A stretch of DNA of 64,000 nucleotides from Bacillota bacterium (GCA_023435025.1 JAEYSE010000032.1:30424-94423); one strand, 5' to 3'; shown: positions 39,028 to 55,435, numbered from the stretch's first letter. Notes: a model not told the origin generated them from the letters alone. Program-made: numbers and translations.

Positions 39028-40596
39028 CTACGCCAAATCGATGTCATGCAGTATCCCCCTGCTGAAGAAAACAATCAGCATGGAGATAAGTATGTTCCAT
39101 CCGATGAAAAGGAAGTACGTGAGCAACCCGGGAATGCTTTCGCTTAGAATCATGGAAACAATCATTCCCGGCATAACCAGCAACAGAAGTATGACGATAT
39201 ACACGGTCATCACGAGTGCTTTATTTTTAGAGGGCCCCAGCACGCGCTCCACAATCAGCATCCCCGCCATATACAGCAGGGAAATGCTTGCATAGCACAG
39301 AACAGCCGCAACGCCTTCCAGGAACGTCCCGTGATACAGCAACACGCCGAGTATTGCGAATAGTACGCCGTCAACAAGCGCCTTTTCTATCTGTGGCAGT
39401 AGCACCGCCATCAGCTTGCTCCAGGCGTTTGCGGGTGCAAGATACAATACGGGATACTGAAGTTCCCTTGCAATGCCACCTGTCATGTTCAAGAATATCA
39501 TCATCCAGACGCTCATGTTGAGCACGCCCCATAGCCAACCGCTTTCGATCGCTTCCTTGGGCAGGAACAGCAGGCCCATGATGGGGCCAGCAAACGCGCC
39601 GAGCGAATAGAGGTCGACCACAAATATGCCGCTGCGCGACTGCTCCCGCAGGATACGGCCCGTAAAAGCGAGCGCGCCTGTGCCGTACAGCGGCCCTTTG
39701 TCCCGTACGATTTTTGCGCTGACCTCTCCCTGTGAGGAAGTAAAGCGGCCCGCCTTTGCGTCCTCCTGTTTCTGATTGGCGCGTTCCGCTGCGAGTAGAA
39801 CATCCTCAAAATAATCCATATGGGTGCGCTGCAGCAGCAGCGCGCACACCAGCGTGCCAAGGAGGATCAATACAAAGTAGAGCACGGCCCCGGTCCATTG
39901 GTAACTTGCAAAACATACGGCAAGCCCGCGCACCCAACCGACAAACGGAAAATAGTTCCACGCATCCGCGCTAAAGTACATAGTCAGCGCGGTCTGCAAG
40001 TCTCCCTTGCCGGGCATGAACAGAAAAAAGCCGCCCACAATGCCAATACAGATCAGAGAAAGCGCGTAATTGACATAGTTGCGCCGTTTAGAAGACCCTG
40101 CGCAAAATGCATACAAAAGGGCGGACAATATCTGCGAGGCGAAGCCGATGAGCGCGTAGGAGGCCATAAGCCCTAGCAGCGCATAGCCGTCCAGACCCGC
40201 CGCGTTGCGCATATTGGGGTATTGGAATATCATGAAAACCGAAGCCGCAAGCAGTATGCCCGCCTGCTTCAAAATGCCGCCCACCAGAATTTTTCTTGGG
40301 CTGATTGGCGCAACAAACATAAAGTTGACGTCCGCCATGGAAAAAAGCGCCGTCCCCTGCTTAAGCCCCGTCATGACGGAAATTCCGGCAATGAAGAAGA
40401 ACACGCCGAATAGTATGGCGGAATACCCTGAAATCACCTTTTCTTTGGGCGCTTCGCCGGAAACACCCAGGCCGAAGATCATGTAGCCGACAAACCCCAG
40501 CAACAGCAGGTACAAAACCAGTATGAGCGGTTTTTTGAGCACCAGCAAAAAGCGATTTTTTAGCGACCGAAGCCACAGATAGACGATCGCTCTCAT
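39028..40596 (-). CDS. Polytopic membrane component of an ABC exporter (putative ABC-exporter permease)
   Basis: The 522-aa ORF has about 12 hydrophobic segments. It overlaps the upstream ABC ATPase gene by 4 nt. Confidence 0.7.
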   Translation of the reverse strand: MRAIVYLWLRSLKNRFLLVLKKPLILVLYLLLLGFVGYMIFGLGVSGEAPKEKVISGYSAILFGVFFFIAGISVMTGLKQGTALFSMADVNFMFVAPISPRKILVGGILKQAGILLAASVFMIFQYPNMRNAAGLDGYALLGLMASYALIGFASQILSALLYAFCAGSSKRRNYVNYALSLICIGIVGGFFLFMPGKGDLQTALTMYFSADAWNYFPFVGWVRGLAVCFASYQWTGAVLYFVLILLGTLVCALLLQRTHMDYFEDVLLAAERANQKQEDAKAGRFTSSQGEVSAKIVRDKGPLYGTGALAFTGRILREQSRSGIFVVDLYSLGAFAGPIMGLLFLPKEAIESGWLWGVLNMSVWMMIFLNMTGGIARELQYPVLYLAPANAWSKLMAVLLPQIEKALVDGVLFAILGVLLYHGTFLEGVAAVLCYASISLLYMAGMLIVERVLGPSKNKALVMTVYIVILLLLVMPGMIVSMILSESIPGLLTYFLFIGWNILISMLIVFFSRGILHDIDLA

Positions 40597-41297
40597 TTTT
40601 GGCCCTCCGTGATGGAGAAGAACAATTCTTCAAGCTGTTCCCCACTTTCGCTCATGTCCTCCCTGTTGCGTTCCGCAGCGATGCGGCCGTTCTTCATGAT
40701 TAAAAGCCTGTCCCAGATTTCCTCTGCGCTGTTGAGTAGATGGGTTGAGAGCAATATGGCCGCGCCGCGCTGCTTTTCTTCTACAAGAACCTCCTTTAAC
40801 ACCTTGATGGCATGCGGATCAAGCCCTACCATGGGTTCATCCACCAAGATCGCTAAGGGTTCGGGGAGCAGCGCACAACACAGGCTGACCTTTTGCTGCA
40901 TGCCCTTGCTCAGCTCCCGACCGACCTTTTTTTCATGCTCCAAAAGCTCAAAGCGTTCAAGCAGCAATTTCGCCCTGTCACGCCACCGTTCTTCCAAAGA
41001 ATATGCGCGTGCGATGAACTCCATATGCTCTGCGATTGTCAGCATACCGTATACCGCCGGGGTTTCGGGTACATAGCCCAATACGCGCTTTGCCTCAATG
41101 CTTTTGTTCGGCTTCCCGGCCACCGTTACACTGCCCTGATACCGTAACAGCCCCGCCATTGCCTTGATGGCGGTGGACTTTCCCGCGCCGTTTGGCCCCG
41201 CAAGCACAGTAAGCGTTTCATATGGGACAGTAAAGCTCAACTGGTCGTTCGCAAGCACTTTTCCGTATTTTTTGGTCAACCCTTCCACAACAAACAT
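40593..41297 (-). CDS. ABC transporter ATP-binding protein (ABC-2 type)
   Basis: It has GPNGAGKST, LSKGMQQKV and LVDEP. Confidence 0.88.
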   Translation of the reverse strand: MFVVEGLTKKYGKVLANDQLSFTVPYETLTVLAGPNGAGKSTAIKAMAGLLRYQGSVTVAGKPNKSIEAKRVLGYVPETPAVYGMLTIAEHMEFIARAYSLEERWRDRAKLLLERFELLEHEKKVGRELSKGMQQKVSLCCALLPEPLAILVDEPMVGLDPHAIKVLKEVLVEEKQRGAAILLSTHLLNSAEEIWDRLLIMKNGRIAAERNREDMSESGEQLEELFFSITEGQK

Positions 41298-41449: not shown

Positions 41450-41521
41450 ACAGCAGAAGCCGGCCGTAAAAACGCACATCTACGCGGCCGAACGCCGATC
41501 CAAACAAGGAGGAACACCCAT

Positions 41522-41788
41522 ATGTATCAAAACCAGAATACGATGGGTAGCTGCTGCTTCAAACCATGCGGCTGCCAATTAAATCCTTTGGATGTGAAGA
41601 ACACGCTGCTTGCGGGCAATGTCTGCGAAACCAGCAGAGCATGTGGAATCACATCCAAGGAGGAGCCAGGATGCTTACTCGCGACCGCATTCATCGCAAA
41701 ACAGGATTACAAAGCAGGTTACTGTCCAAATGAAGCCCTGTGCCAGGGTACGATGTTCCCGGAACTTTTGCGCCCGTACTTGCGTTAG
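41522..41788 (+). CDS. cotJA: Spore coat-associated protein CotJA
   Basis: The start is set at MYQNQN after AGGAGGA. The C-terminus (ATAFIAKQDYKAGYCPNEALCQGTMFPELLRPY) matches the CotJA signature. Confidence 0.85.
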   Translation: MYQNQNTMGSCCFKPCGCQLNPLDVKNTLLAGNVCETSRACGITSKEEPGCLLATAFIAKQDYKAGYCPNEALCQGTMFPELLRPYLR

Positions 41789-41798
41789 GAGGCCCAAC

Positions 41799-42047
41799 AT
41801 GGATGCGAAGCAACATGCTCTTCTGATGAAGATCAGCGAATGCGAATTTGTGTGCGTAGAACTCAATTTATACCTCAATACGCATCCCAAGGATAAGGAT
41901 GCGCGCGCTGATTATTTCTGCTACTCGAAAAAGCTTGCGGAATTGATCACCAAATACGAACAGTGCTATGGACCCTTGCTTGGCTTTGGCCATTCCCCCA
42001 CGGATGTGGGGTGCTGGGTTTGTTCACCATGGCCGTGGCAAATGTAA
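41799..42047 (+). CDS. cotJB: Spore coat protein CotJB
   Basis: MDAKQHALLMKISECEFVCVELNLYLNTHP...YEQCYGPL...WPWQ fits the CotJB pattern. TAGGAGG lies upstream. Confidence 0.88.
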   Translation: MDAKQHALLMKISECEFVCVELNLYLNTHPKDKDARADYFCYSKKLAELITKYEQCYGPLLGFGHSPTDVGCWVCSPWPWQM

Positions 42048-42059
42048 GGAGGCTCTGCT

Positions 42060-42163
42060 ATGTGGATCTATGAAAAGAAACTGCAATACCCTGTTAACAT
42101 CTGCTCGCCCGATGTAAGAATGGCTAAATTGCTCATGGCACAATATGGCGGCCCTGATTCGGA
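42060..42163 (+). pseudogene. cotJC: cotJC 5' segment (codons 1-34 plus 2 nt), interrupted by the element
   Basis: MWIYEKKLQYPVNICSPDVRMAKLLMAQYGGPDSE matches the CotJC N-terminus. After 42163 the reading frame continues into unrelated sequence (LSGYKPHKCG...) and stops at 42251. Confidence 0.85.
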
Positions 42164-42183
42164 GCTATCCGGTTACAAACCAC
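42141..42183 (+). other. attL junction with GA core at 42162-42163 and the element-side half-site GGTTACAAACCAC (42171-42183)
   Basis: See the findings. The half-site is the inverted repeat of GTGGTTTGTGACC at the other end. Both lie 7 nt from GA. Confidence 0.75.
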
Positions 42184-42369
42184 ATAAATGCGGGACAAGC
42201 CAAAGGATCAGTGTAAGACTTGGCTTGGCTGGTATGAGCAGAATAAAATGAACAAAAGATATCATTCATATTCCGGTTGGGCAGGCGACTACTTTCATGA
42301 TTTCGGACTTATTGGGTGGGGAGCTTTTCCTCATCTTTTTTTATCTCCTGTCAAAGAAAGGAAGACCAT

Positions 42370-43350
42370 ATGCAGTTTTTTCTATTGATTTTAGGTCTTG
42401 CAATGATTGTGAAGAGCGCGGATGTGCTCATTGACTCCTCATCCAGAATTGCACGCAGGTATGGGGTTTCCTCATTTGTTATCGGATTAACGGTTGTTGC
42501 CTTCGGCACAAGCGCGCCGGAACTCGCGGTAGGGATTGTTTCGGGTATCGCCCGCACAAACCAATTGACGCTTGGGAATATTGTAGGGAGCTCGCTTTCC
42601 AACATCGCTCTCATTGTCGGAATATCATCCATCATCATGCCGCTTCGGGTAAGGGATGCCGTAGCAAAGCGAGAAATGCCCATGTTAATTGGAATCGAGC
42701 TCATTCTTTGCGCCATGATGCTTTTTGACAACGTCTTGTCTAGACTGGATGGCGTGTTCCTGCTGCTTGGTTTTGCCGGATTTATGGCATATATCATCCG
42801 CGACACAAAGAGTTCCACGCAGCCCGAACTCGATAAGGACAACAATATCGATACCGACGGCGAAAGGAACCAGCTTCCAAACAAAAAGAAAGAATCCAGC
42901 ATGGGCAAGCTCTGGCTCTTTTCGGCGCTTTCTCTGGCGGGATTGTTTTTGGGCGGAAAACTGACGGTGGACAGCAGCACGCAGATTGCGCAATCCTTTG
43001 GGTTAAGCGAAACACTCATCGGCCTTACTGTGGTATCGCTTGCCACTACCATGCCCGAGCTCATCACAAGCATTATGGCCGCAGTAAAAAAGGAACCGGA
43101 TATTGTGCTTGGCAACTGCATCGGCAGTAATATATTCAATATCTTGCTCGTGCTTGGTTTTTCCTCCGCCATCTCTCCTATTCCGGTGGAAAGCAGCCTG
43201 ATTTTGGATGCTGCAGCAATGGGAATCGTAACGATATTCTTATTTATTGTCTCTATCATTCAAAAGCAGATCCGGCGGGGTACCGGTATCCTGTTGCTTA
43301 TAAGCTATGTTGGATATCTTTCTTATAAGATTGCTACCGCTTTCATTTAA
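42370..43350 (+). CDS. Ca2+/Na+ antiporter (CaCA / YrbG family)
   Basis: The start is set at MQFFLLILGL. Two alpha-repeat motifs are present (GTSAPELAVG and ATTMPELITS). Confidence 0.85.
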   Translation: MQFFLLILGLAMIVKSADVLIDSSSRIARRYGVSSFVIGLTVVAFGTSAPELAVGIVSGIARTNQLTLGNIVGSSLSNIALIVGISSIIMPLRVRDAVAKREMPMLIGIELILCAMMLFDNVLSRLDGVFLLLGFAGFMAYIIRDTKSSTQPELDKDNNIDTDGERNQLPNKKKESSMGKLWLFSALSLAGLFLGGKLTVDSSTQIAQSFGLSETLIGLTVVSLATTMPELITSIMAAVKKEPDIVLGNCIGSNIFNILLVLGFSSAISPIPVESSLILDAAAMGIVTIFLFIVSIIQKQIRRGTGILLLISYVGYLSYKIATAFI

Positions 43351-43479
43351 CCCAACAACACAATGGATGCCCCACAGGCACTCCTTTTTTACTTTACGCT
43401 TTTACCCGCTAACGTAGGCCCTCAGAACGAGGAAGACATTGAATTGCTCCGCCTCAATGTGCTATGGTGAAAAAAATGG

Positions 43480-44637
43480 ATGGCGGGTGAACCCATGAAT
43501 GTTGAAGTATCCATAGCGCCCTGCGAGGACTATGACCTCAAAAAAGTAAAAAGCGCAATTCAGGCGGCGCTCCGGCCCATCAACGGGCTTGATTGGGTAA
43601 CGCCCGGCATGAAAATCGCCGTGAAAGCGAATTTGATGATGCGGTCAAAGCCGGAAAAGGCGGCGACCGTACACCCGCAAGTTGCAGTGGCATTGTGTGA
43701 GCTTCTGATTGAAAAGCAGGCAAATGTGGTCCTTGGGGACAGCCCGGGCGGCCCTTTTCACCCGGGCTATTTGGCGTCCGTGTACGCAGGTACGGGGATG
43801 ACTGAAGTGCTCAAAACCGGCGCTACGCTAAACCATGACTGCACTTATGAGGAGGTATCCTATCCGGACGCCGTTACTGCAAAGACATTCCAGATCACCA
43901 AGTATCTTTTGGATGTAGACGCCATTATCGATTTGTGCAAGATAAAGACGCATGGCCTGATGGCATATACCGGCGCATGCAAGAATTTCTTTGGCGCTGT
44001 TCCCGGTATGCATAAGTCCGAATACCACTACAAGTACCAGACACACGAGACGTTTGCCAATATGCTTGTGGATATCTGCGAGTGGTGTAAGCCCCGCTTA
44101 TGCATTGCCGACGCCGTAATGGCCATGGAGGGAAACGGCCCGTCCGGCGGGGCGCCACGCTTTATGGGCGCAATTCTTGCCGCTTTTAATCCGCATGCGC
44201 TTGATCTGGCCGCCGCACACCTGCTGAACCTTGGCTCAAAGGATGTTCCGACGTTGCATGCAGCGTATCAGCGCGGCCTCATTCCGCAAAGTGTTTCTGA
44301 GCTCTCCATTCACGGCGATATATCCCGGTTTGTCATACCCGATTTTCAGCTGACTCCGAAGCACGATGTCCAATTGTGGGGATCAAAAAACAAAACCATT
44401 GCGAAGCTATTGTCCAAAATGTTTGCGAGCCGGCCTGCGATAAACCTGAAAAGATGCATCGGATGTGCAGAGTGCCAGAAAGTCTGCCCTGCCCAAGCGA
44501 TTACCATGGTAAATCAAACAGCAAGAATTCAAAAAGATAGGTGCGTGCGCTGCTTTTGCTGCCAGGAGTTTTGTCCCAAAGGAGTTATCAGCGTGCACCG
44601 GCCATATGTTGCGCGCATCATGGATAGTCAAAGATAA
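43480..44637 (+). CDS. DUF362-domain protein with a C-terminal 2x[4Fe-4S] ferredoxin domain
   Basis: It has IAVKANLM...HPQVAVAL...VLGDSPGG (DUF362 pattern), plus CIGCAECQKVCP and CVRCFCCQEFCP. Confidence 0.75.
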   Translation: MAGEPMNVEVSIAPCEDYDLKKVKSAIQAALRPINGLDWVTPGMKIAVKANLMMRSKPEKAATVHPQVAVALCELLIEKQANVVLGDSPGGPFHPGYLASVYAGTGMTEVLKTGATLNHDCTYEEVSYPDAVTAKTFQITKYLLDVDAIIDLCKIKTHGLMAYTGACKNFFGAVPGMHKSEYHYKYQTHETFANMLVDICEWCKPRLCIADAVMAMEGNGPSGGAPRFMGAILAAFNPHALDLAAAHLLNLGSKDVPTLHAAYQRGLIPQSVSELSIHGDISRFVIPDFQLTPKHDVQLWGSKNKTIAKLLSKMFASRPAINLKRCIGCAECQKVCPAQAITMVNQTARIQKDRCVRCFCCQEFCPKGVISVHRPYVARIMDSQR

Positions 44638-44879
44638 CCTCATAAAAAAAGGAACACAAAAGCGAGGCCATATGCGTCGCTTTTCTTTTTTACAGCGAGC
44701 AAAATGTCAGCCTGTCCCACGCCTGGTATATTAATCCTTTTCGCCAAACCGCCCGATATTTTGAAAGAATAGGGTTGCCCCTCATTGCAGGTATTTGTTA
44801 TGATAATAGGGAAAGGCATTTGTTGTGCAACAACTTATACCTCGTTAATTTTCTGACAACAGGAAGAGCAGGTGAAATA

Positions 44880-46214
44880 ATGAAAGCCCATCCTTTTGCC
44901 GGCGGCGTGCATCCACTCAAATCATCCCATCATGGCAAGACACTCTCCAACGAAAGCGCCATCTCCGTCATGCCCGCGCCGGACATTGTGGCAATCCCCA
45001 TGGTACGGGTCACGGGCGCGCCATGTACCCCGCTTGTGAAGAAAGGGGACAGCGTGAAACTGGGGCAGTGTATCGGTAGAAGCGAAAGTTATGTGAGTGC
45101 ACCCATACACGCCAGCGTCTCCGGTACGGTAATCGCCGTGGAAAACCGGCCGCACCCCACGGGGAAAAGTCTCGTGCTTTCGGTAGTAATCCGAAACGAC
45201 CATCTCGACACCAAAGATGAAAGCTACGCACCGCCAGAAAACATAGATGCTCTGAGCGGGCCCCAACTCATATCGATCATTCGTGAAAAAGGTATTGTCG
45301 GCTTAGGTGGCGCCACGTTCCCTACACATGTCAAGCTTACCATTCCCAAAGACAAAAAAGTCGACGTATTGATCGCGAATGGGGCGGAATGCGAGCCGTA
45401 CCTTACGGCGGACGATCGCCTGTTGCAGGAGCATGCCGAAAACGTCATCGCGGGCATGCGGTTCGTGATGCGCGCGCTTCAAGTCAAGCAGGCATTTGTC
45501 GGCATTGAAGGGAACAAACTTCGGGCCATACGCGCCATGCGCGAGGCGGCGAAGGGCACGCCAATTGAAGTATGTCCGCTACGCGTCAAATACCCGCAAG
45601 GCGGAGAAAAGCAATTGATTTACGCCATCACCGGGCGGGAGGTCCCAAGCGGCGGCCTTCCGGCGGACGCGGGCTGCGTGGTGTTAAACGTCGGCACCTG
45701 CAACGCGATCTACGAGGCGGTTGCACTGGGCAAGCCGCTCCTTGAGCGCGTGGTAACTGTGACGGGTGGCGGCGTAAACACGCCCGGCAACCTCCTTGTA
45801 CGCATCGGCATAAGCTTCCGGGACTGCATCGCGTTCTGTGGCGGCATGGTAGAAGATACACAAAAGATACTTTCCGGCGGGCCTATGATGGGCATCGCGC
45901 AGTATACGGACGAAGTTCCGGTGATTGCAGGAACTTCGGGTATCCTGGTGCTTGCCGGGAAAGAAGCCCATGTACCGCCTGCCTCCCCCTGCATCCACTG
46001 CGGGCGCTGTTATCAAGTCTGCCCAGCGGGTTTGCAGCCCTATATCATTTCCGCAGCGGCAGACCGCAGTGACGCCGCGCAGGCGGCTTTGTTCCACGCG
46101 CTTGACTGCGTGGAGTGCGGCGCTTGCGCATATATCTGCCCCGCGCACAGGCAGCTTTTACAGAGCATGCGCCTTGCAAAGCTGAAAGTCCGCGGCGCGG
46201 CTATAAAGAAATAA
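44880..46214 (+). CDS. rnfC: Rnf complex subunit C
   Basis: The start is set at MKAHPFAGGVHP. It has GIVGLGGATFPTHVK, CIHCGRCYQVCP and CVECGACAYICP. Confidence 0.92.
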   Translation: MKAHPFAGGVHPLKSSHHGKTLSNESAISVMPAPDIVAIPMVRVTGAPCTPLVKKGDSVKLGQCIGRSESYVSAPIHASVSGTVIAVENRPHPTGKSLVLSVVIRNDHLDTKDESYAPPENIDALSGPQLISIIREKGIVGLGGATFPTHVKLTIPKDKKVDVLIANGAECEPYLTADDRLLQEHAENVIAGMRFVMRALQVKQAFVGIEGNKLRAIRAMREAAKGTPIEVCPLRVKYPQGGEKQLIYAITGREVPSGGLPADAGCVVLNVGTCNAIYEAVALGKPLLERVVTVTGGGVNTPGNLLVRIGISFRDCIAFCGGMVEDTQKILSGGPMMGIAQYTDEVPVIAGTSGILVLAGKEAHVPPASPCIHCGRCYQVCPAGLQPYIISAAADRSDAAQAALFHALDCVECGACAYICPAHRQLLQSMRLAKLKVRGAAIKK

Positions 46215-46264
46215 TCGGTAACATCCAAGTTCGCCTTATTCGGCATGTTCGGAGGTCATATGGC

Positions 46265-47263
46265 ATGAAGTTGAACGTTTCCCCTTCCCCCCACATCCGC
46301 GCCCCGCAAGATACGCGCTCGCTGATGCGGGATGTGCTCATTGCGCTTGCGCCCGCATGTATTATGGGTGCATATCGCTTTGGCTACCAGGCGCTGTATG
46401 TGCTGCTTCTCTGCACTGCGGCGGCAGTGCTGACCGAGTGGGCATTACAAAAGTTATTAAAGCGTGCCGTCACGATCGGGGATCTTTCCGCGGCGGTTAC
46501 CGGCATCCTCATAGGCATGAACCTGCCGGTTTCTAGCCCGTGGTGGATGTGCGTACTGGGCTCAGTATTCGCAATCGGGCTGGTAAAGGTGCCGTTTGGC
46601 GGCATCGGCAATAATTTCGTGAACCCCGCGCTTGCTGCGCGCGGCTTTCTTTTGGCCAGCTTTCCGGTGCAGATGACGGCATGGACGGCCCCGGTCAATT
46701 CATTCTTAACATCCACAGCGGATGCCGTTTCCACCGCCACGCCGCTTTCCCTGCTGGCGCAGGGCGGAAGCGCGACAGTCGCAGCAACGACGCCAATGCA
46801 GGAGTTTTTTGCGCTCGCTTTGGGGAATAGAGGCGGGTGTATCGGAGAGGTCAGTTCCGTTGCGTTGCTGATCGGGTTTCTCTACCTGCTGATACGCAAT
46901 GTCATCTCCTGGCGTATCCCGCTGATCTATATTGCCACAGTGTTTGTCGGCGTGGCGCTTTTGGGCGGCGGCGCAGGACAGACTGGTTACGCGCCGTTAT
47001 GGGCCGCCGCCATGCATACGGTATCCGGCGGATTGCTGCTTGGCGCGTGCTTTATGGCGACGGATTACTCCACGTCCCCCGTCACCCCCAAGGGACAGCT
47101 GATCTACGCACTGGGCTGCGGGCTACTTACGGTGGTCATCCGCCTGTATGGCGGGTACCCGGAGGGCGTTAGCTACTCCATACTCATCATGAACCTGTGT
47201 GTGCCGCTCATTGAGCGCTATATGCGCGCGCGGGTCTACGGGGAGGTAAAGCGCCATGCGTGA
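46265..47263 (+). CDS. rnfD: Rnf complex subunit D
   Basis: The start is set at MKLNVSPSPHIR. It has the FMN-attachment-type motif FMATDYSTSP. Confidence 0.92.
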   Translation: MKLNVSPSPHIRAPQDTRSLMRDVLIALAPACIMGAYRFGYQALYVLLLCTAAAVLTEWALQKLLKRAVTIGDLSAAVTGILIGMNLPVSSPWWMCVLGSVFAIGLVKVPFGGIGNNFVNPALAARGFLLASFPVQMTAWTAPVNSFLTSTADAVSTATPLSLLAQGGSATVAATTPMQEFFALALGNRGGCIGEVSSVALLIGFLYLLIRNVISWRIPLIYIATVFVGVALLGGGAGQTGYAPLWAAAMHTVSGGLLLGACFMATDYSTSPVTPKGQLIYALGCGLLTVVIRLYGGYPEGVSYSILIMNLCVPLIERYMRARVYGEVKRHA

Positions 47264-47801
47264 TCTTTTACATCTGGGAGGACGGCTGTTTTTGATTTCG
47301 TTAATCGCTGGACTTGCGCTGGGCGCAACCTATTTTGTAACAAAAGATCCGATCGCGGATCAGACACGCCTTGCTGCGGAAGCCGCACGCGCTGAGGTGT
47401 TTGAAGGGACTTTCGCACAGGATACGCAGGAAAAGCTGCCCGGAAACATAAAAACCTTGTACTTGGCCAAGGGCGAACAGGACGGCTATGTGATGGAAGT
47501 GGAGGCAACCGGCTACGGCGGCATATTCACCGTAACGGTGGGCGTAACGATGGACGGCGTGATCACAGGCGTTGTGGTAGGCGACAACAGCGAAACGCCG
47601 GGCTTAGGTAAAAACGCGCAAAATCCCGAGTTCGCCGCACAGTTTGTTGGCAAGGACGGACCCATTTCTGTGAAAAAGGGCGGCGGTGCCAGTGGGAATG
47701 AAGTAGACGCGTTAACCGGTGCCACCATTACCGCCCAGGCTGTAGTGAACGCCGTAAACGAAGCGCGTGAGTTCGCGCTTACGATTGGAGGGCAGTCATG
47801 A
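47256..47801 (+). CDS. rnfG: Rnf complex subunit G
   Basis: The 181-aa ORF has an FMN-binding domain and the motif VDALTGATIT. Confidence 0.9.
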   Translation: MRDLLHLGGRLFLISLIAGLALGATYFVTKDPIADQTRLAAEAARAEVFEGTFAQDTQEKLPGNIKTLYLAKGEQDGYVMEVEATGYGGIFTVTVGVTMDGVITGVVVGDNSETPGLGKNAQNPEFAAQFVGKDGPISVKKGGGASGNEVDALTGATITAQAVVNAVNEAREFALTIGGQS

Positions 47802-48460
47802 AAGCGCTCAAAGTCGTAATTAACGGCATATGGAAGGAAAACCCCACATTCCGCCTGCTTTTGGGCATGTGCCCCACGCTTGCGGTTTCTACCGCAGCAA
47901 TAAACGGTGTGGGTATGGGGCTTGCCGCAACATTCGTGCTGATATGCTCCAACGTATTCGTGTCCTTGCTGCGCAACTTTATCCCAACCAGGGTGCGTAT
48001 CCCCGCGTATGTAGTCATTATCGCGTCGTTTACGACGATTGTGGAGCTGTTGTTAAAGGCGTTTGTCCCCTCGCTAGACAAGGCGCTGGGGCTGTATATC
48101 CCGCTCATCGTCGTCAACTGCATTATACTCGCACGCGCAGAGGCTTTCGCAAGCTCCAATACCCCAATTATGAGCGCGCTCGATGGATTGGGCATGGGCC
48201 TTGGCTTTACGGCGGCGTTGACGTTCTTCGCTTCCATACGCGAGCTGATCGGCGCGGGCAGCATATTCGGCATTTCAGTGCTTGGTGACGGTTATGTCCC
48301 GGTGGTCATCATGCTGCTTGCACCCGGCGGGTTTATTACGCTGGGTTTGGTGCTGGGGGCTCTGAACGCCCTCTCCAACAAGAAAAAGAAGGGAGTGAAC
48401 AGCAATGACATGGCTTGTAAGGCTTGCCCTCATAGCGATCACTGCGGCGCTGGTCAATAA
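47798..48460 (+). CDS. rnfE: Rnf complex subunit E
   Basis: The 220-aa ORF has the RnfE/NqrD pattern (NPTFRLLLGMCPTLAV). Its 3' end overlaps rnfA by 56 nt. Confidence 0.9.
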   Translation: MKALKVVINGIWKENPTFRLLLGMCPTLAVSTAAINGVGMGLAATFVLICSNVFVSLLRNFIPTRVRIPAYVVIIASFTTIVELLLKAFVPSLDKALGLYIPLIVVNCIILARAEAFASSNTPIMSALDGLGMGLGFTAALTFFASIRELIGAGSIFGISVLGDGYVPVVIMLLAPGGFITLGLVLGALNALSNKKKKGVNSNDMACKACPHSDHCGAGQ

Positions 48461-48992
48461 CTTTGTTCTGGTGCGGTTTTTGGGCATCTGCCCCTTCTTA
48501 GGCGTATCCCAAAACGTAAAATCCGCCTCCGGTATGGGTATGGCCGTGACATTCGTCATGGGCATGGCTTCTCTGTTTACATGGATGATCCAGCAGTGGG
48601 TGCTTGAACCTTTGGGCATCGGCTTCATGCAGACCATCGCCTTTATTTTGACCATCGCGGCGCTGGTTCAGTTTGTGGAGATGGTGCTTCAAAAGACGAA
48701 CCAGACGCTCTACAAGGCGCTGGGCGTATATCTCCCGCTCATCACCACCAACTGCGCGGTGTTGGGCGTCGCAATACTTAACATAGAGCAAAACTACACG
48801 CTTATAGAGAGCGTGGTAAACGGCGTGTTTGGCGGCGTGGGCTTCACCATCGCCATCGTGCTGATGGCGGGCGTGCGCGAAAAGCTGGAAAACGCCGAAA
48901 TACCTAAAGCCTTGCGCGGTTTCCCCATTACGCTTCTGGCGGCTGGGCTGATGGCGATTGCATTTATGGGTTTTTCCGGTTTGGGCCGATAA
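48405..48992 (+). CDS. rnfA: Rnf complex subunit A
   Basis: The 195-aa ORF has the RnfA/NqrE pattern (VNNFVLVRFLGICPFLGVS). GGGAG lies upstream. Confidence 0.9.
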   Translation: MTWLVRLALIAITAALVNNFVLVRFLGICPFLGVSQNVKSASGMGMAVTFVMGMASLFTWMIQQWVLEPLGIGFMQTIAFILTIAALVQFVEMVLQKTNQTLYKALGVYLPLITTNCAVLGVAILNIEQNYTLIESVVNGVFGGVGFTIAIVLMAGVREKLENAEIPKALRGFPITLLAAGLMAIAFMGFSGLGR

Positions 48993-49001
48993 GGAGGAAC
49001 A

Positions 49002-49817
49002 ATGACTTCGATTATATGGATCAGCGCGGGAGCAGTCGCCCTTCTTGGGCTGCTGCTGGGGGTGGCGCTGAGTGTGGCCGGAAAGTTCTTTTCCGTAAAA
49101 AGGGATGAGCGTATCGATGCGGTACGGGAACTATTGCCCGGCGCAAACTGCGGCGCTTGTGGCTATCCCGGTTGCGACGGGCTCGCAACCGCGATCGCAA
49201 CGGAAGGCGCAGCCGTTAATCTGTGTACCGTCAACACTGCTGAAAACGCATTGAAGATCGCGGAGTTGATGGGTGCCGACGAAAGCGGAATACAGCCGCT
49301 GATCGCGCATGTGCAGTGCCGCGGAACGCTTGACAATACGCAATTGAAATTTAATTATGAAGGGCTTTCGGATTGCGCCGCCGCAATGGCCATTGCCGAC
49401 GGCACCAAAAGTTGCCCCATGAGCTGCCTGGGCTTTGGAAACTGCGCGCGGGTCTGCCCTGTGGACGCCATCACAATCATCAACGGTCTCTCTACAATCG
49501 ATCACAGCCGCTGCATTACCTGCGGCAAATGCGTTGCGGAATGCCCGCGCCACATCATACGCCTGCTGCCAAAAAACAGCGTGGTGCGCGTGGACTGTTC
49601 CAACGTGCTCAAAGGCAAGGCGGTAAGCGAGAACTGCAAGGTCGGCTGCATTGGCTGCAGTATCTGCGCAAAAAGCTGCAAGTACGACGCAATCACCATG
49701 GTGAACGATCTGCCGGTATTCGACTACGAAAAATGCGTGGGCTGCATGGAGTGCGCAAAAAAATGCCCGCGCCAGATCATCTGGGGCACGGACAGCCCGC
49801 AAATGCAATCCGTCTGA
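49002..49817 (+). CDS. rnfB: Rnf complex subunit B (polyferredoxin)
   Basis: It has an N-terminal TM segment, CGACGYPGCDG, and several CxxCxxCxxxCP motifs. Confidence 0.92.
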   Translation: MTSIIWISAGAVALLGLLLGVALSVAGKFFSVKRDERIDAVRELLPGANCGACGYPGCDGLATAIATEGAAVNLCTVNTAENALKIAELMGADESGIQPLIAHVQCRGTLDNTQLKFNYEGLSDCAAAMAIADGTKSCPMSCLGFGNCARVCPVDAITIINGLSTIDHSRCITCGKCVAECPRHIIRLLPKNSVVRVDCSNVLKGKAVSENCKVGCIGCSICAKSCKYDAITMVNDLPVFDYEKCVGCMECAKKCPRQIIWGTDSPQMQSV

Positions 49818-49845
49818 AAGATGCAGCATATTGTTACAAAAATTA

Positions 49846-49880
49846 AGCGGGTGATTTTTAAAATCCCCCGCTTTTCATTT
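49846..49880 (+). terminator. Terminator after rnfB
   Basis: The stem is AGCGGGTGATTT / AAATCCCCCGCT followed by TTTTCATTT. Confidence 0.75.
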
Positions 49881-49978
49881 ACTTTCAATACTATTGCCAA
49901 ATCGGTGATAATTCGGCACCGCTGTATTTGGAACTACCTAAGCCCAGCGGATGAAGCCCAACTCTAACGCTGGCTTAT

Positions 49979-51256
49979 TTATATCCCCCAGAACAGCCAG
50001 ATCAACACATAACCGGAAAACACGGCGGCGAGCGTGAAGGGTACGCTGACCTTCATGAAATCCTGGGCCTTGACCTCGTGCCCTTCCTTGCGCAGGATAC
50101 CAAGGCCGGCGATGTTTGCGGAGGCCCCAATCGGCGTAAGGTTTCCGCCCAACGTCGCGCCGGCGAGCAGTCCAAAGTACAATACCGTGGGATCAACGCC
50201 CATGATCTGCGCAATGCCTGAAGTAACCGGCAGCATGGTCGCGATGTACGGAATGTTGTCGATAAACGCGGAAAGCAGCACGGAAGTCCAGACTAAAAGC
50301 GTATACATCAGGAACACGTTGTTGTTGCTGATGCTCACGAATATCCGGCTGACTTCGGTGATCACGCCCGCTTCCGTAATGCCCGCAATGACGACAAACA
50401 GCCCGGCCAGCAGCAGCAGGGTGAAATAATCAATTTCCTTGACCGTATCTTTAATGAACGCAACCCGCTTTTTAAACAGCTCCCGCACAATGCCGATCAG
50501 GAACAATCCCACGCAGATATATCCATTGATGTTTTGTGGTTTGTTGGGCAAGAAAGAGGCCAGTATCAACAACACAATGGTAGATACAAGAAGTACGGTT
50601 GGAAAATAATCCTTTACCACAGTGCGCTCACCCACGCTGATGGGCTGGCGTTGTTTCCTAAATACAAACAGCAGCACAAACGCGGAAGCAATTGCTCCAA
50701 TCTGAACCACAAAGAACATGCCAGGTCGGTTCTGGTAGAAGAAAAAGTCCAGGAAATCCATGTTGGCGTAACCGCCCAGCAGTATGGATGTGGTGTCTCC
50801 AACCAGTGTGGCCGCGCCCTGCAGGTTGGATGAAATGGCGATTGCGATAATGGGCATTACGGGCGAAATTTTAAGCTTTTTTGAAATATCCACCGCCACG
50901 GGCGCAACCATGAGCACAGTCGCCACATTGTCCACAAACGCGGAAATGAGGCCTGCAAACAGGGCCAGCGCGATAATTGCCCACCTGACATCAGGCATTT
51001 TATCCAATATCATATCCGCAAGTAACGCGGGCATCTTGGAATCAATAAACAATGCCACAATACCCATGGTACCGAAAATCATCATGATTACATTCCAGTC
51101 GATGGCGGAAAATATCTTGTTGGCCGGTAGAATCCCCAGTATAACGAACATCGCCGCAGAAACGAGCGCGATATAAGCACGCACCTTTGGGAAAGCGATG
51201 AGGCATACATAGGTCACAAGAAACAGAATCAGCGCAAGAGTCATTTTGAAAACCAC
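49979..51256 (-). CDS. ArsB/NhaD-superfamily ion transporter
   Basis: The 425-aa polytopic ORF has an internal repeat architecture typical of CitMHS/ArsB/NhaD permeases. Confidence 0.7.
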   Translation of the reverse strand: MVFKMTLALILFLVTYVCLIAFPKVRAYIALVSAAMFVILGILPANKIFSAIDWNVIMMIFGTMGIVALFIDSKMPALLADMILDKMPDVRWAIIALALFAGLISAFVDNVATVLMVAPVAVDISKKLKISPVMPIIAIAISSNLQGAATLVGDTTSILLGGYANMDFLDFFFYQNRPGMFFVVQIGAIASAFVLLFVFRKQRQPISVGERTVVKDYFPTVLLVSTIVLLILASFLPNKPQNINGYICVGLFLIGIVRELFKKRVAFIKDTVKEIDYFTLLLLAGLFVVIAGITEAGVITEVSRIFVSISNNNVFLMYTLLVWTSVLLSAFIDNIPYIATMLPVTSGIAQIMGVDPTVLYFGLLAGATLGGNLTPIGASANIAGLGILRKEGHEVKAQDFMKVSVPFTLAAVFSGYVLIWLFWGI

Positions 51257-51306
51257 CTCCGTATTATATAAGCCAGGACATCTGCCCTGTCCTATTCACA
51301 CATCCC

Positions 51307-51951
51307 CTATCTTGATTTCAAAAGTATCAGATCATCGTCGGCATACAGTTCCGTTTTTGCATCCAGAACCGCGATTACCTCAGAATTCCGGATAATAGCA
51401 ATGATATTGATGCCTTCCGTCTGCCTCAGGCGCAGCTTTTCCAAGCTTTTTCCCACCCAGTTCGGAAGGGGTTTCATTTCGATGATGTCATATTTTTCAG
51501 ATCGATGGATGGATTCCATGAGCCCGTTTGTAATCAGGCTGTAAGCGACCCTCTCCCCCATCTCCTTTTCAGGCAATATCACGCGGTCCACGCCGATGGA
51601 CTCCAAAATAAGTTTCTGGCGCGAACCGTTTGCCTTTGCAATGATGCAGGGCACCTTGAGTTCTTTTAATATCGTCGCGGTGACGGCAGCCGCCTCAAAA
51701 TCGGCGCTAAACGCGATGATGACCACATCAAAGTTTCCTATTCCCAATTTTTCCAGAACGGCCTTGTCGGAAGCGTCCGCTTGTACGGCATGCGTAGCAA
51801 AATCCGCAGCCTCGTGTACCAAATGCTCATCGATATCGCAGCAGAGCACATGGTGGCCGTTCTCAAACAGCGTGCATGCGAGGCCTCGGCCAAACTTTCC
51901 AAGGCCAAGTATGGCAAACTGCGTGTTTTCATCAACAGTAATCTTATACAT
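51307..51951 (-). CDS. trkA: K+ uptake system NAD-binding subunit (TrkA/KtrA)
   Basis: The 214-aa ORF has FAILGLGKFG (Rossmann, TrkA-N) plus a TrkA-C domain. Confidence 0.88.
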   Translation of the reverse strand: MYKITVDENTQFAILGLGKFGRGLACTLFENGHHVLCCDIDEHLVHEAADFATHAVQADASDKAVLEKLGIGNFDVVIIAFSADFEAAAVTATILKELKVPCIIAKANGSRQKLILESIGVDRVILPEKEMGERVAYSLITNGLMESIHRSEKYDIIEMKPLPNWVGKSLEKLRLRQTEGINIIAIIRNSEVIAVLDAKTELYADDDLILLKSR

Positions 51952-51980
51952 CAGCTTTTACCACCTTATATACTGTTTCA

Positions 51981-53372
51981 TTAACCGATCATAACGTCTT
52001 CATCCGGATATTGGATGCGCTCGTTTACAGTGCTTGTTCGTTGCTGGAGTGAAAGTATGATGGTGATTGGCCCAATCCTTCCGACATACATGCACAGCAT
52101 CAAAAGCAGCTTCCCAAAGGGGGAAAGAAAAGGCGTGATGCCCGTGGATACCCCAACTGTACCCAGCGCCGAAGCCACTTCAAAGAGTAGATCCGCAGGG
52201 GTATGGGCAAATGTGGAGGCGCGCTCCGTAACCGCCAGTATCACTCCTCCGCCCATCCACAGCAGCAGCATAATCACGATAATGGTCAGTGCCCGTTGCA
52301 GCGTAAGCACCGGTAGAGTCCTTCCAAATGCATACATGTTCCGCCTGCCGCTCAACGTGCTCCATACGCTTAAGAACAAAATAGCAACGGTAACAGTCTT
52401 CATGCCGCCCGCCGTCCCGCCCGGCGACCCGCCTATGAGCATCAGGATGCTGGATATCATTTTGGAGGTTTCGCTCAACCCGTTCTGGGCTATGGTAAAA
52501 AACCCTGCCGTGCGCAACGTAATGGACTGAAAGAAGGAGCATATGATCTTACCGCCAACCGAAAGCGGCCCCAACGTTTCTGGATTATTGTACTCCGAAA
52601 TGAAAAAGTAGGCTGCACCACCTACAATGAGTACCGCGGTTGCAATAAGCGCAAGCCTGGAATGCAATGAAAGCCTGTGTTTCCTTTTAATATCCGGCTT
52701 TAGTCTGTATTTGATCTTCAGGCCCACATCCCGCCACACAGAAAAACCGATACCACCCATCACAATGAGACCCATAATGACCAAGTTAATGACGGGATCG
52801 GTCGCATAGGGCATCAGGCTGAATTCACCTAAATTATCGAACCCCGCGTTGCAGAAAGCGGAAACCGCGTGAAACACGCCGTTTGCAATCGCGTCGTACC
52901 AGACGAAGCCCTTATCGAGAAACGAGAATGTCAGTATCAGCGCGCCTATGCCCTCGCAAAAGAATGTTCCGCGGATGACCAACAAGACCAGGCGTACCAT
53001 GCCGCTCAAGTCGTTGATATTGAACGTGGCCTGTACAGTCAGACGGTCTTTTAACGTCACCTTCCTGCCAAGGTAGACAATAAAGAAAGTAAATATGGTG
53101 ACTAAGCTGAGCCCGCCGATCTGAATCAGCAACAATATGACAATCTTTCCGAAAATGCTCCATGTCGTGGCGGTAACAAGCGGAACCAGCCCTGTAACGC
53201 AAACCGCCGAGGTAGCGGTGAAGAATGCGTCCAGCGCAGATACTTCCACTCCCGGCTGGTGCGAGATAGGAAGCCACAAAAGCAGGCCGCCGAACACAAT
53301 CACCGTCAGAAAGCTGATGGCGATTATTCTGGGAGTAGACATGTTCTTCTGTAATCTTGCAAGCGCCTTCAT
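51981..53372 (-). CDS. trkH: K+ uptake system membrane subunit (TrkH/KtrB)
   Basis: The 463-aa ORF has repeated selectivity-filter-like segments (CVTGL, NAGF, RTAGF, GTVGVSTG). Confidence 0.88.
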   Translation of the reverse strand: MKALARLQKNMSTPRIIAISFLTVIVFGGLLLWLPISHQPGVEVSALDAFFTATSAVCVTGLVPLVTATTWSIFGKIVILLLIQIGGLSLVTIFTFFIVYLGRKVTLKDRLTVQATFNINDLSGMVRLVLLVIRGTFFCEGIGALILTFSFLDKGFVWYDAIANGVFHAVSAFCNAGFDNLGEFSLMPYATDPVINLVIMGLIVMGGIGFSVWRDVGLKIKYRLKPDIKRKHRLSLHSRLALIATAVLIVGGAAYFFISEYNNPETLGPLSVGGKIICSFFQSITLRTAGFFTIAQNGLSETSKMISSILMLIGGSPGGTAGGMKTVTVAILFLSVWSTLSGRRNMYAFGRTLPVLTLQRALTIIVIMLLLWMGGGVILAVTERASTFAHTPADLLFEVASALGTVGVSTGITPFLSPFGKLLLMLCMYVGRIGPITIILSLQQRTSTVNERIQYPDEDVMIG

Positions 53373-53416
53373 TCGATATTGCCTTATCTGATCTCTTTCG
53401 TAATACTGCCTGTACT

Positions 53417-53446
53417 ATTATACTCGCTTGAACAGCACCCTGTCCA
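53417..53446 (-). promoter_or_regulatory. Sigma-A promoter for trkH-trkA
   Basis: The reverse strand reads TGGACA, an 18-nt spacer, then TATAAT. Confidence 0.6.
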
Positions 53447-53568
53447 TAAATGTCTTGAACTACTCGGATTGGGTAATGGACTCAAAAACGTACCAAATGG
53501 GCCGCTTTTCCTTCTAGGACAACGATCTCTCCTCATAGTATGACAGTAGCAATAACGGGAGGTAATAT

Positions 53569-53784
53569 ATGGGACGTCTCGCTGTGCAATATTCCGTCCC
53601 GGAAGAAAAGCTCGCGTGGAGCCACCCGCTGCTACGGCTTGTCATGCTCAAATCACTCAAAGCGCAGGGCGTTATTCCGGAGGCGATCTATATGCGCTGC
53701 CTCGAGCAGCTTGACTTGTCGGATGGCTACGATGCGCAAAAAGAGCGGGTGGCTGGAACGATAAAATATGAAGCCGAGCATTGA
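53569..53784 (+). CDS. 71-aa hypothetical protein immediately upstream of the recombinase (candidate accessory factor / RDF)
   Basis: GGGAGG lies 6 nt before the ATG. It overlaps the recombinase start by 17 nt. I recognise no motif. Confidence 0.5.
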   Translation: MGRLAVQYSVPEEKLAWSHPLLRLVMLKSLKAQGVIPEAIYMRCLEQLDLSDGYDAQKERVAGTIKYEAEH

Positions 53785-55435
53785 GAACATGCGCGCCCAG
53801 CTTATTTGGGGAAAGCGGCTGGCGGATATCCCTTTGAGAGCGACGTATTACGCACGGGTCAGCACGGACAGGGACGAGCAGTTGAGTAGCCTGTATAACC
53901 AGAAGGCTTATTTTGAAGAGAAAATACGCGCAAACCCGGCGTGGATATTCGTGCCGGGGTATGTGGACGAAGGCGTGACGGGTACTTCTACAAAAAAGCG
54001 GACGGAATTCTTACGCATGGTGGCGGACGCCAAAGCCGGGTTGTTCGATCTCATATTGACCAAGGAAGTTTCCCGCTTTGCGCGCGATCTGCTGGACTCT
54101 ATCGCCTATACCCGGGAGCTTCTGCATTATGATGTTGGCGTGGTGTTTGAGGACACGGGCTTAAACACCATTGACGCCGATTCCGAATTCCGCCTTGCCA
54201 TTATGGCGACCGTCGCACAGGAAGAATCGCGCAAGCTATCCGAGCGCGTAAAATTTGGCTGGAAGCGCGCACAGGAGGCCGGAAAGCGCCATGGCGCCGT
54301 AGCACCCGTGGGGTATGTGTTCAACAACAAAATCAACGGCTACGACATCGACCCGGAGACCGCTCCGGCTGTACAATATATTTACCGGCGCTATGCGGAG
54401 AATATTGTAGGCACTCGCACCATTGCGCAGGAGCTCAAGGACCGGGGCTATGTTAACCTGAGCGGGAACGCGTACTACCCGAGCACCATACGCCGCATCA
54501 TTGAAAACCCGCTATACAAGGGGTATATCGTAAGCCGAAAATCCGTAAGCATCTCCTACCGCAGCCAAAAAAAGCAATATAACCCTCCTGTGGAATGGCT
54601 GCTGCATTATGATCCTTGCCGCGTACCGCCGCTTGTTACGGAGGATGAATGGGACGCCGCGAACCGCGTAGCACGTTTGCGCGGTGAGTTCATGAAAGGG
54701 ATCGACTGCGGCGCTTATCATAAATCGGGTGGCAAGTATCCGTACACGGGCAAGATTTTTTGCTCCGCCCATCATTGCAATTATCAACGTGCACAGCAGC
54801 AGTGGAACGCTGACGGTGAACCAAAAAAGCGGAGTTATTGGCGCTGTGCCTGCTACAAACGCCCGGAACAGCCCTCCATCTGCGACGCACCGCGCCTGTA
54901 TACGGACCAACTGGACAGAATGATGCGCGAGCTTTTTCGAATACTGATTGACGAAAGTTTGGGCTCATCCCTGCCCGATGTGGTAAAAAGCGCGCTTTCT
55001 GCCCGGGATTGTTCTGCCAAACCGGAAAAGTTTACACAACGGCTGTTGCAGCTTCAAAACAAAAAAGCCAAATTGGTAAAAGGCTGGCTGGACGGCGTGA
55101 TACAGGATGCGGATTATCGCGTTTTGGATCAGGAAATCAGCGGGAAAATCGCAGCACTTGAAGCACAAAAAATGTGCAATCCCGTGCCGGAACAGGTAGA
55201 TTTAGTCGATCTTGAACGGAGTATGCATGAAAACGCCGCCATCAATACGCCGGAAGCGCTCGAAGAACTCATACGCTGCCTAGTACATCAAATACGGGTG
55301 GAACCCGTCCCGGACGAAGCGGGGGCGTATATTCTTAAAGTTGTACTCGATATTCCGGGCGTTGCCTTTTCCGGCACGGAACGCTTTGTGGTTTGTGACC
55401 CGAAAGGGAACTTGCCGCGGGGGTCCGGTACCTGA
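53768..55435 (+). CDS. Large serine recombinase (SpoIVCA/SprA/TnpX class)
   Basis: The 555-aa ORF has an N-terminal resolvase catalytic domain (YARVSTDRDEQ, SRFARD, EESRKLSERVK). It also has a recombinase domain, a Cys-rich zinc-ribbon region (CSAHHCNY...YWRCACY) and a coiled-coil tail. The last 26 nt lie beyond the attR core. Confidence 0.9.
   Translation: MKPSIENMRAQLIWGKRLADIPLRATYYARVSTDRDEQLSSLYNQKAYFEEKIRANPAWIFVPGYVDEGVTGTSTKKRTEFLRMVADAKAGLFDLILTKEVSRFARDLLDSIAYTRELLHYDVGVVFEDTGLNTIDADSEFRLAIMATVAQEESRKLSERVKFGWKRAQEAGKRHGAVAPVGYVFNNKINGYDIDPETAPAVQYIYRRYAENIVGTRTIAQELKDRGYVNLSGNAYYPSTIRRIIENPLYKGYIVSRKSVSISYRSQKKQYNPPVEWLLHYDPCRVPPLVTEDEWDAANRVARLRGEFMKGIDCGAYHKSGGKYPYTGKIFCSAHHCNYQRAQQQWNADGEPKKRSYWRCACYKRPEQPSICDAPRLYTDQLDRMMRELFRILIDESLGSSLPDVVKSALSARDCSAKPEKFTQRLLQLQNKKAKLVKGWLDGVIQDADYRVLDQEISGKIAALEAQKMCNPVPEQVDLVDLERSMHENAAINTPEALEELIRCLVHQIRVEPVPDEAGAYILKVVLDIPGVAFSGTERFVVCDPKGNLPRGSGT
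55388..55430 (+). other. attR junction with element-side half-site GTGGTTTGTGACC (55388-55400) and GA core at 55408-55409
   Basis: It is the inverted repeat of the left-end half-site (12/13 match) at the same 7-nt distance from GA. Confidence 0.75.

Follow-up and report, generated by a model that had tools for sequence, protein, structure and literature searches.

A putative gene-intervening element carrying a complete Rnf operon and ion transporters in the coat gene cotJC of a Bacillota lineage

Programmed excision of DNA in a terminally differentiated cell is known from the heterocyst elements of Anabaena (in nifD, in fdxN with the large serine recombinase XisF, and in hupL). Those elements are ancient, have been passed on vertically and contain assorted genes that are not of phage type. 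Among spore formers, the 134-kb phage SPbeta likewise interrupts a gene. SPbeta lies in spsM, a spore-envelope gene that is rebuilt in the mother cell by the serine integrase SprA together with SprB, a directionality factor under sporulation control (PMC4191935, PMC5499854). Excision of the skin elements, that of Bacillus subtilis included, takes place in the terminal mother cell, rebuilds the gene and leaves a circle; for skinCd of Clostridioides difficile, excision is confined to the mother cell, the directionality factor is a 72-amino-acid (aa) protein without database similarity driven by sigmaE and SpoIIID, and the excised circle is detectable (Serrano et al. 2016, PMC5025042). In Bacillus cereus ATCC 10987, gerE is interrupted by gin, an intervening element of 28.6 kb without phage genes (Abe et al. 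2017, PMC5595907), and for Bacilli cotJC has already been named among the integration targets (Abe et al. 2013, as cited in bioRxiv 10.1101/2021.11.22.469490). Here we describe a 64,000-nucleotide (nt) stretch of DNA from a Bacillota bacterium (GCA_023435025.1, JAEYSE010000032.1:30424-94423; the whole stretch is called the window), in which a segment with a complete Rnf operon, ion transporters and a large serine recombinase lies between the two halves of cotJC.

We read this segment as a gene-intervening element of the skin, SPbeta and gin kind in codon 35 of cotJC, which would excise and which carries native cargo, and we give this reading a probability of about 0.7. Its structural part is highly probable, and excision in the mother cell in particular is moderately probable. 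Below, L numbers denote related loci and P numbers related proteins.

An insertion in cotJC with bioenergetic cargo

We mapped the crossover by setting the left and right attachment sites (attL and attR) of between four and six lineages against those of four empty loci, and found that it falls on a GA dinucleotide in codon 35 of cotJC that is common to all lineages. The positions of the two GA cores (Table 1) give an element of 13,246 bp, window 42164-55409, between the two cotJC halves, and attR is conserved in L002, L008, L009, L017 and L018. Rebuilt in silico, attP reads GGTTTGTGACC-CGAAAGG-GA-GCTATCC-GGTTACAAACC, with an 11-bp inverted repeat set 7 nt off the 2-bp core on either side and 18 of 30 positions symmetric, which would be the layout expected for a large serine recombinase. 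The predicted attB junction contains GGCGGCCCTGATTCGGAACTTGCCGCGGGGGTCC and the predicted attP junction GGTTTGTGACCCGAAAGGGAGCTATCCGGTTACAAACC. As the two GA cores are in direct orientation, recombination between them would excise the segment and not invert it.

In the integrated state, the 5′ fragment of cotJC reads on to a stop at 42251. Joined in silico, the two fragments give an in-frame cotJC of 140 aa. Intact orthologues (P0121, L010-L012) are colinear with it, and uninterrupted orthologues were recovered when the rejoined CotJC served as query in a protein search. A tblastn search with B. subtilis CotJC matched the 5′ fragment to residues 1-38 and the 3′ fragment to residues 35-132. Furthermore, the contigs of L010-L014 show the same left-flank synteny, with an ABC exporter, cotJA, cotJB and an intact cotJC in this order and no rnf or trk nearby, and the joined window flanks align with L011 without a break (85% identity over 1080 bp). 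The segment has thus been inserted into cotJC, with an att site at either end, as the initial annotation of this DNA had proposed.

One could suppose instead that rnf through trk are native beside cotJ and that the recombinase came separately, which the initial annotation had itself named as a refutation of its proposal; in L001 and L005, rnf-trkAH does form a chromosomal block of long standing. We consider this extremely unlikely, as the block is enclosed by the two parts of cotJC precisely at the att cores, the relatives with an intact cotJC have no rnf or trk alongside, and every recombinase at least 64% identical to that of the window is linked to the rnf...trk block.

The rebuilt CotJC is short, with about 55 C-terminal residues fewer than B. 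subtilis CotJC, in which the missing part includes the REREIVH motif. Among close relatives, we observed both a short form of 140 aa, ending in ...DLAADAAIA (window 55410-55728), and a long form of 184-196 aa (L009 7682-8167; L013 10001-10591). We considered whether the short C-terminus marks a pseudogene or a second insertion, and rejected both in view of the intact 140-aa orthologues (P0121 and others) and the strong constraint on the gene. The short CotJC appears to be a natural variant and not a product of decay.

Genes were called from a listing of open reading frames (ORFs) followed by Pfam and NCBIfam domain searches, with PHROGs as the phage check. The rnfCDGEAB, trkAH, CaCA, NhaD/ArsB-type permease and DUF362 genes named by the initial annotation were each recovered in this way, and its description of the cargo as housekeeping-type bioenergetics and ion transport, next to a recombinase and a small ORF and without phage or conjugation genes, agrees with what we found. 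All six subunits of the Rnf ferredoxin:NAD+ oxidoreductase have full-length family matches. The permease is named to the superfamily level, as its matches to ArsB, DASS and MamN are all sub-threshold and no specific family cut-off is reached. In the ORFs between the att sites, Pfam gave no relaxase, type IV secretion system or other secretion, coupling protein, capsid, tail or lysis domain (the origin of transfer, oriT, was not searched for). The sole functionally annotated phage match in PHROGs was the recombinase, as integrase, and TrkA, TrkH and the permease matched families of unknown function only. When tested for a prophage, all ORFs of at least 120 aa, the recombinase apart, were explained by Pfam as housekeeping genes. 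By gene content, the segment is neither a prophage nor a conjugative or mobilisable element.

The region upstream of rnfC (from about 44754) is conserved in L001, L006 and L008, and that upstream of trkH (to about 53440) in all loci. This suggests that the two regions are candidate promoters and that these genes have apparently kept promoters of their own; both regions, and the CaCA leader, lie inside the element. This leader, immediately 5′ of CaCA (42275-42325, + strand), is a possible Na+ riboswitch (DUF1646 motif; Rfam RF03071, 30.2 bits, under the gathering score of 40.5, E = 0.006), and the same stretch is 86% conserved 5′ of the CaCA gene of L001.

Table 1. Features of the cotJC locus, listed in the order in which they lie in the window
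Feature	Position	Strand	Basis and remarks
ABC exporter pair	39028-41297	-	left flank
cotJA	about 41519-41788	+	PF11007; cotJA-cotJB order upstream of cotJC also in empty-site loci L010-L014
cotJB	41805-42047	+	PF12652
cotJC 5′ fragment	42060-42163	+	codons 1-34 and GA of codon 35; tblastn; colinear with intact cotJC of L011
attL	42162-42181	+	crossover GA 42162-42163, 7-nt spacer, P′ inverted-repeat arm GGTTACAAACC 42171-42181; att comparison
Ca2+/Na+ antiporter CaCA	42370-43350	+	PF01699; TIGR00367 248 bits, over cut-off
DUF362 protein with C-terminal 2x[4Fe-4S] domain	43480-44637	+	PF04015 and Fer4 families
rnfCDGEAB operon with conserved rnfC upstream region	44754-49817 (start approximate)	+	Pfam, NCBIfam
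rnfC	44880-46214	+	Pfam, NCBIfam
rnfD	46262-47263	+	Pfam, NCBIfam
rnfG	47256-47801	+	Pfam, NCBIfam
rnfE	47798-48460	+	Pfam, NCBIfam
rnfA	48405-48992	+	Pfam, NCBIfam
rnfB	49002-49817	+	Pfam, NCBIfam
CitMHS-family permease (ArsB/NhaD superfamily)	49979-51256	-	PF03600, E = 6e-56
trkA	51307-51951	-	PF02254/PF02080
trkH (K+ uptake with trkA)	51981-53372	-	PF02386
Putative regulatory block	53511-53541	+	CTTCTAGGACAAC at 53511-53523 (SpoIIID-like box), then CATAGTAT at 53534-53541
Conserved ORF, 71 aa	53569-53784	+	GGGAGG ribosome-binding site; 17-nt overlap with recombinase start; conserved in 7 loci
Large serine recombinase, 555 aa	53768-55435	+	PF00239, PF07508, PF13408
attR	55390-55409	+	P inverted-repeat arm GGTTTGTGACC 55390-55400, 7-nt spacer, crossover GA 55408-55409; att comparison
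cotJC 3′ fragment	55410-55728	+	third base of codon 35 to stop; tblastn
ABC-F gene	55854-57479		right flank, beyond cotJC 3′ fragment

Age and selection in relatives with the same arrangement

The same architecture, in which rnfCDGEAB, the CitMHS permease, trkAH, the small ORF and the recombinase lie between the 5′ and 3′ parts of cotJC, was found in L002, L008, L009, L017 and L018 (with the window, the cotJC-type loci). These loci come from several independent studies and assemblies, and the nearest relative bearing a name is a Feifaniaceae metagenome-assembled genome (MAG). All recombinases at least 71% identical to that of the window (P0002-P0006, 71-79%) lie in this arrangement. The core element measures about 10.7 kb and variation is confined to the stretch between attL and rnfC, which has CaCA and DUF362 as extra genes in the window, DUF362 in L002, and none in L008 and L017. 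Both genes are variable cargo: CaCA occurs among cotJC-type loci only in the window lineage (it is missing from L002, L008 and L017), and DUF362, common to the window and L002, has a ratio of nonsynonymous to synonymous divergence (dN/dS) of 0.14 between the two.

Relative to L002, synonymous divergence (dS) is 0.5-0.9 for the cargo and 0.55-0.75 for the flanking ABC genes, a resemblance which indicates that the element diverged together with its surroundings. The cargo genes have dN/dS values of 0.01-0.14 (0.01-0.12 for rnf) and all appear to be functional. For the recombinase, intact in six lineages, the ratio is 0.14-0.19; for the cotJC 3′ fragment it is 0.02-0.09, and for cotJC rejoined in silico 0.03-0.09, equal to the value against an uninterrupted orthologue. 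As this last range is unlike that of a gene dead over a dS of about 0.4-0.7, cotJC is probably still rebuilt and used, and we regard the constraint on it as the strongest indirect sign of continued rebuilding. The element would accordingly be ancient and vertically inherited across at least six related species.

These values bear on the possibility of a dead insertion, in which an old element was fixed in cotJC at the cost of the gene, and nothing but inactive remains is left of the recombinase and att sites. Such a history would agree with the lack of mobility genes besides the recombinase, with the absence of the excised form from the public contigs searched, and with the tolerance of C. difficile to the loss of individual CotJC-like catalases (PMC11222575). 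It is nevertheless unlikely, because the cotJC halves have stayed in frame and under the constraint given above since the split, the recombinase is intact in six lineages with a dN/dS of 0.14-0.19, and conservation extends to the GA core, the inverted repeats of attP and the box upstream. Furthermore, the relaxation seen in a permuted relative, L006 (lost repeat and box, long dN branch), is not seen in the cotJC-type loci.

A visibly mosaic composition, pointing to assembly from different sources, had been suggested initially and is not borne out. GC content is 0.525 in the element against 0.533 in the window, 36 out of 51 segments of equal size from the window have a larger tetranucleotide distance than the element, and we rejected a foreign composition as GC, GC at third codon positions (GC3) and tetranucleotide signature all gave no signal. 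The spot counts behind that suggestion (23/60 and 38/60 G+C) were exact, but they are ordinary for this DNA, in which 5% of the 60-nt tiles of the window have at most 23 and 11% at least 38 G+C.

The alternative that the segment is an active genomic island, a recombinase-borne 'energy-conservation island' moving rnf and trk between genomes, had also been raised initially. The segment would be an excisable unit with its own integrase, its block occupies three genomic contexts (window type, L006, L001) among similarly diverged species, and its attL-rnfC region varies by lineage, all of which such an island might show. We consider it very unlikely, since there are no transfer or packaging genes, the composition is native, six insertions at one site have co-diverged flanks, and rnf-trkAH is linked without a recombinase in L005; cargo dS is as large as flank dS, so there has been no recent transfer.

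The recombinase operon and its predicted control

The recombinase scores 93.8 bits for PF00239, 69.7 bits for PF07508 and 24.6 bits for PF13408, the last just below the cut-off of 25.3. A YARVSTD motif is invariant in seven recombinase sequences and is, by position, the candidate catalytic-serine motif. Among GenBank phage integrases the nearest is only 36% identical, so that the recombinase has no named phage relative. We also observed that its ORF crosses attR: the last eight codons (NLPRGSGT, 55410-55435) are cotJC DNA in another frame, and after excision the predicted C-terminus would change to ...DPKGSYPVTNHINAGQAKGSV, giving 564 aa.

The 71-aa ORF, which appears to be translationally coupled to the recombinase, is likely to be its recombination directionality factor and is our candidate for this role. 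A 74-aa frame (53540-53764) was rejected as the small gene in favour of the 71-aa frame, given the ribosome-binding site, the recombinase overlap and the conservation of the latter. As a separate observation, small ORFs of 45-75 aa lie directly 5′ of every related serine recombinase examined, a phage-borne one included (L016 9831-9974, L022 9770-9967, L015 4918-5145, and in L023 and L024). They have the motif L..(K/E)(Q/N)G(L/V)(I/L) loosely in common, and may form an undescribed family of accessory proteins.

Upstream of the operon of small ORF and recombinase, a SpoIIID-like box together with a CATAnnnT motif was found in 6/6 loci. In the alignment, the 13-nt CTTCTAGGACAAC is invariant in the six cotJC-type loci and CATAGTAT, a candidate mother-cell-type -10, follows ten nt further on. 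Within the 64-kb window, TAGGACAA has a single occurrence, at the SpoIIID-like box; one occurrence per window is the chance expectation, and it is therefore the positional conservation that carries weight, TAGGACAAC being found once per cotJC-type locus at the same position and absent from L001 and L006. From this arrangement we infer SpoIIID-type control of the operon. The cotJ genes themselves are, as we take it from B. subtilis, expressed in the mother cell.

Excision might also be real and not tied to sporulation, as a stochastic or stress-induced switching of cotJC that would amount to regulated gene integrity or phase variation. This is improbable in our view, given that the target is a mother-cell coat gene, that the operon is preceded by the SpoIIID-type box, and that dividing cells in which the element excised would lose rnf and trk by segregation, which should be counter-selected. 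In favour of such switching, some large serine recombinases of intervening elements are constitutive (SPbeta, skinCd: PMC5595907, PMC5025042).

Under the intervening-element reading, the recombinase and the co-transcribed 71-aa protein would recombine attL with attR at the GA, which would free a 13.2-kb circle and rebuild the 140-aa cotJC. This would most likely happen in the sporulating mother cell, from the promoter with the SpoIIID-type box, and the forespore would keep the element. Loss of rnf on excision, which the initial annotation had foreseen for the mother cell, would hold for its chromosome, together with loss of trk; the circle would carry the conserved region upstream of rnfC, a candidate promoter. 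The cell need not lose the functions of rnf and trk, because the mother cell does not divide again and, in the case of skinCd, the circle is detectable.

Cargo history and comparison with known elements

The rnf-trkAH block occurs without a recombinase in two relatives: in the distant L005, where rnf and trkAH are linked, and in L001, which has rnf-CitMHS-trkAH with CaCA adjoining rnfC in inverted orientation, without recombinase or cotJ. More distant recombinases (46-47% identical) lie at the same cotJC position in L015 and L021/L022, with mobile-element-type cargo of unknown proteins, and within a phage in L016. The simplest reading would be that a cotJC-targeting mobile element was fixed in the clade ancestor, lost its own cargo and then came to enclose a native bioenergetic block, so that the former mobile-element cargo would be gone and the present cargo would be native rnfCDGEAB, CitMHS permease and trkAH, plus CaCA and DUF362 in the window lineage. 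This fits the initial suggestion that chromosomal genes were taken up by an old element, or that it expanded around them, in view of the recombinase-free blocks and of cargo dS like that of the flanks.

L001 may be the ancestral native locus or a derived one, and the trees do not decide for the former: in protein neighbour-joining trees rooted with L005, L001 is basal in only 36-67% of bootstraps, and in the DNA tree it is the outgroup or else pairs with L008/L017 as their sister. The EamA genes 3′ of trkH in L001 and L005 have no detectable homology, and thus give no evidence of shared synteny. Two further observations concern these distant loci. In L015 (3-6958), the 47%-identical recombinase occupies the same codon of cotJC but is turned round, towards the 5′ fragment, and the visible cargo has another serine recombinase at its far end. 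In L005 (4822-7305), an ammonium transporter-P-II domain fusion of 827 aa lies directly 5′ of rnfC.

A relative of particular interest is the block at L006 9801-20145 and L007 1779-12123, which reads small ORF-recombinase-rnfCDGEAB-CitMHS-trkAH, contains no part of cotJC and is flanked by floA and by a 65-aa relic of amt that in L006 lies beyond trkH. It is the window element circularly permuted, with the recombinase end joined to the rnfC end as in an excised circle, and its recombinase is 64% identical to that of the window. In the DNA tree (neighbour-joining, as all our trees, on one block), the split between L001, L008, L017 and window, L002, L006 has 99.6% bootstrap support, so that L006 groups with two cotJC-type loci and other cotJC-type loci fall across the split. 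L006 is without SpoIIID-like box or P-arm repeat and has a doubtful remnant only of the P′ arm, and its recombinase branch is about 2.5x longer in dN than that of L008 at equal block rates, as derived from pairwise values. This pattern looks like relaxation, which the cotJC-type loci do not show. It suggests that in L006 the element left cotJC as a circle and that the block was retaken into the chromosome by another route; if this is true, the circle is real and its cargo was worth keeping.

We rejected L006 as the ancestral state, which the position of rnf near V-ATPase genes in L004 and L006 might indicate, as this conflicts with the tree grouping and with the lost box and P-arm repeat. The proximity itself is a side observation: at L004 3202-16104 and L006 1-9460, only a few kb separate rnf from the operon of a V-type ATPase, in different relative arrangements. 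This hints at an older bioenergetic neighbourhood, which has no neat fit with a derived L006. The idea that L010-L012, with their intact cotJC, are the same species as L006 was dropped too, as flank identities put L010 outside the group of window, L002 and L008.

Several points weigh against the intervening-element reading. The excised circle or the rejoined cotJC of the window species has not been seen, and all sequences compared are metagenome assemblies, that of the window being scaffold_16 of ENA ERZ28595025. The attP pattern gave 0 matches in JGI metagenome contigs and IMG/VR, where the lineage may be absent; as a recombinase scan of the same collection gave only relatives at most 47% identical, this null result is uninformative. 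For the rnf copy number, the data cover one match per related MAG and the window itself. The 71-aa ORF has no Pfam, PHROG or NCBIfam match. The SpoIIID-like box agrees with the SpoIIID site TAGGACAAGC at 8 of 10 positions, the consensus being that of B. subtilis, where it is the high-affinity site (PMC11180830), and the -35 region fits every sigma consensus poorly.

As dividing cells would be deprived of rnf and trk by excision, the cargo could insure against loss of the element, a hypothesis that can be taken one step further. The housekeeping cargo may be the point of the arrangement: with a K+ uptake system and perhaps the sole Rnf complex of the cell as hostages, loss from the germ line would be barred and cotJC repair confined to the terminal mother cell; we regard this as doubtful, if worth stating. 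If it is true, L006 is a natural experiment in which the element left cotJC and the block had to return to the chromosome. In a stronger version, excision would also set off a programme by which the mother cell runs down its energy conservation.

The usual view of the elements that interrupt sporulation genes is that they are tamed prophages, with cargo that decays or does not matter; the present one carries a complete Rnf under selection, with ion transporters, in an arrangement that has outlasted species-level divergence (dS about 0.5-1). Such elements can thus persist long enough to swap their content for host genes. The locus offers a concrete case for asking about the fate of genes on DNA removed from the chromosome of a terminal cell, and raises the testable idea that essential cargo stabilises an excisable element. 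For annotation, it is a warning that excisable units may contain rnf and trk, and that a cotJC which looks 'broken' in MAGs is not necessarily a pseudogene.

The locus resembles SPbeta in its serine recombinase, its candidate directionality factor and its spore-envelope gene target, and differs in that SPbeta is an infectious phage. With the skin elements it shares a large serine recombinase and, in a close parallel, a small protein lacking known relatives, the factor of about 72 aa there and the coupled 71-aa candidate here; SpoIIID control and excision in the mother cell, known there, are predicted here. The skin elements are prophage remnants in sigK, whereas the cotJC element keeps no phage gene, and in skinCd the factor and the recombinase are separate transcription units, whereas here they overlap and would form one operon. 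From the heterocyst elements it is separated by phylum, cell type and target genes, and its recombinase reaches 66 bits against the NCBIfam XisF model, with a cut-off of 375.

Another close counterpart is gin, which splits a mother-cell sporulation gene as well; there a large serine recombinase, GirC, does the excision together with a small family-less factor, GirX, both expressed in sporulation (PMC5595907). As gin has no phage genes, the initial statement that known intervening elements of sporulation genes are prophages or their remnants is outdated. In contrast to the single recombinase and the complete Rnf and ion transporters of the cotJC element, gin has three recombinases and accessory-type cargo; it targets gerE, whereas the present element lies in cotJC of uncultured Clostridia and appears to have been kept across several species by vertical descent. 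The insertions listed for Bacilli share the target gene and are described, in the citing text, as phage- or transposon-related and not as carrying housekeeping cargo. In literature text searches, we met no description of an intervening element with Rnf or further core genes of bioenergetics for cargo. Taken together, intervening elements that are not phages (gin) were already known, and so was the targeting of cotJC; new are the cargo, the persistence by vertical descent over multiple species, and the permuted relative.

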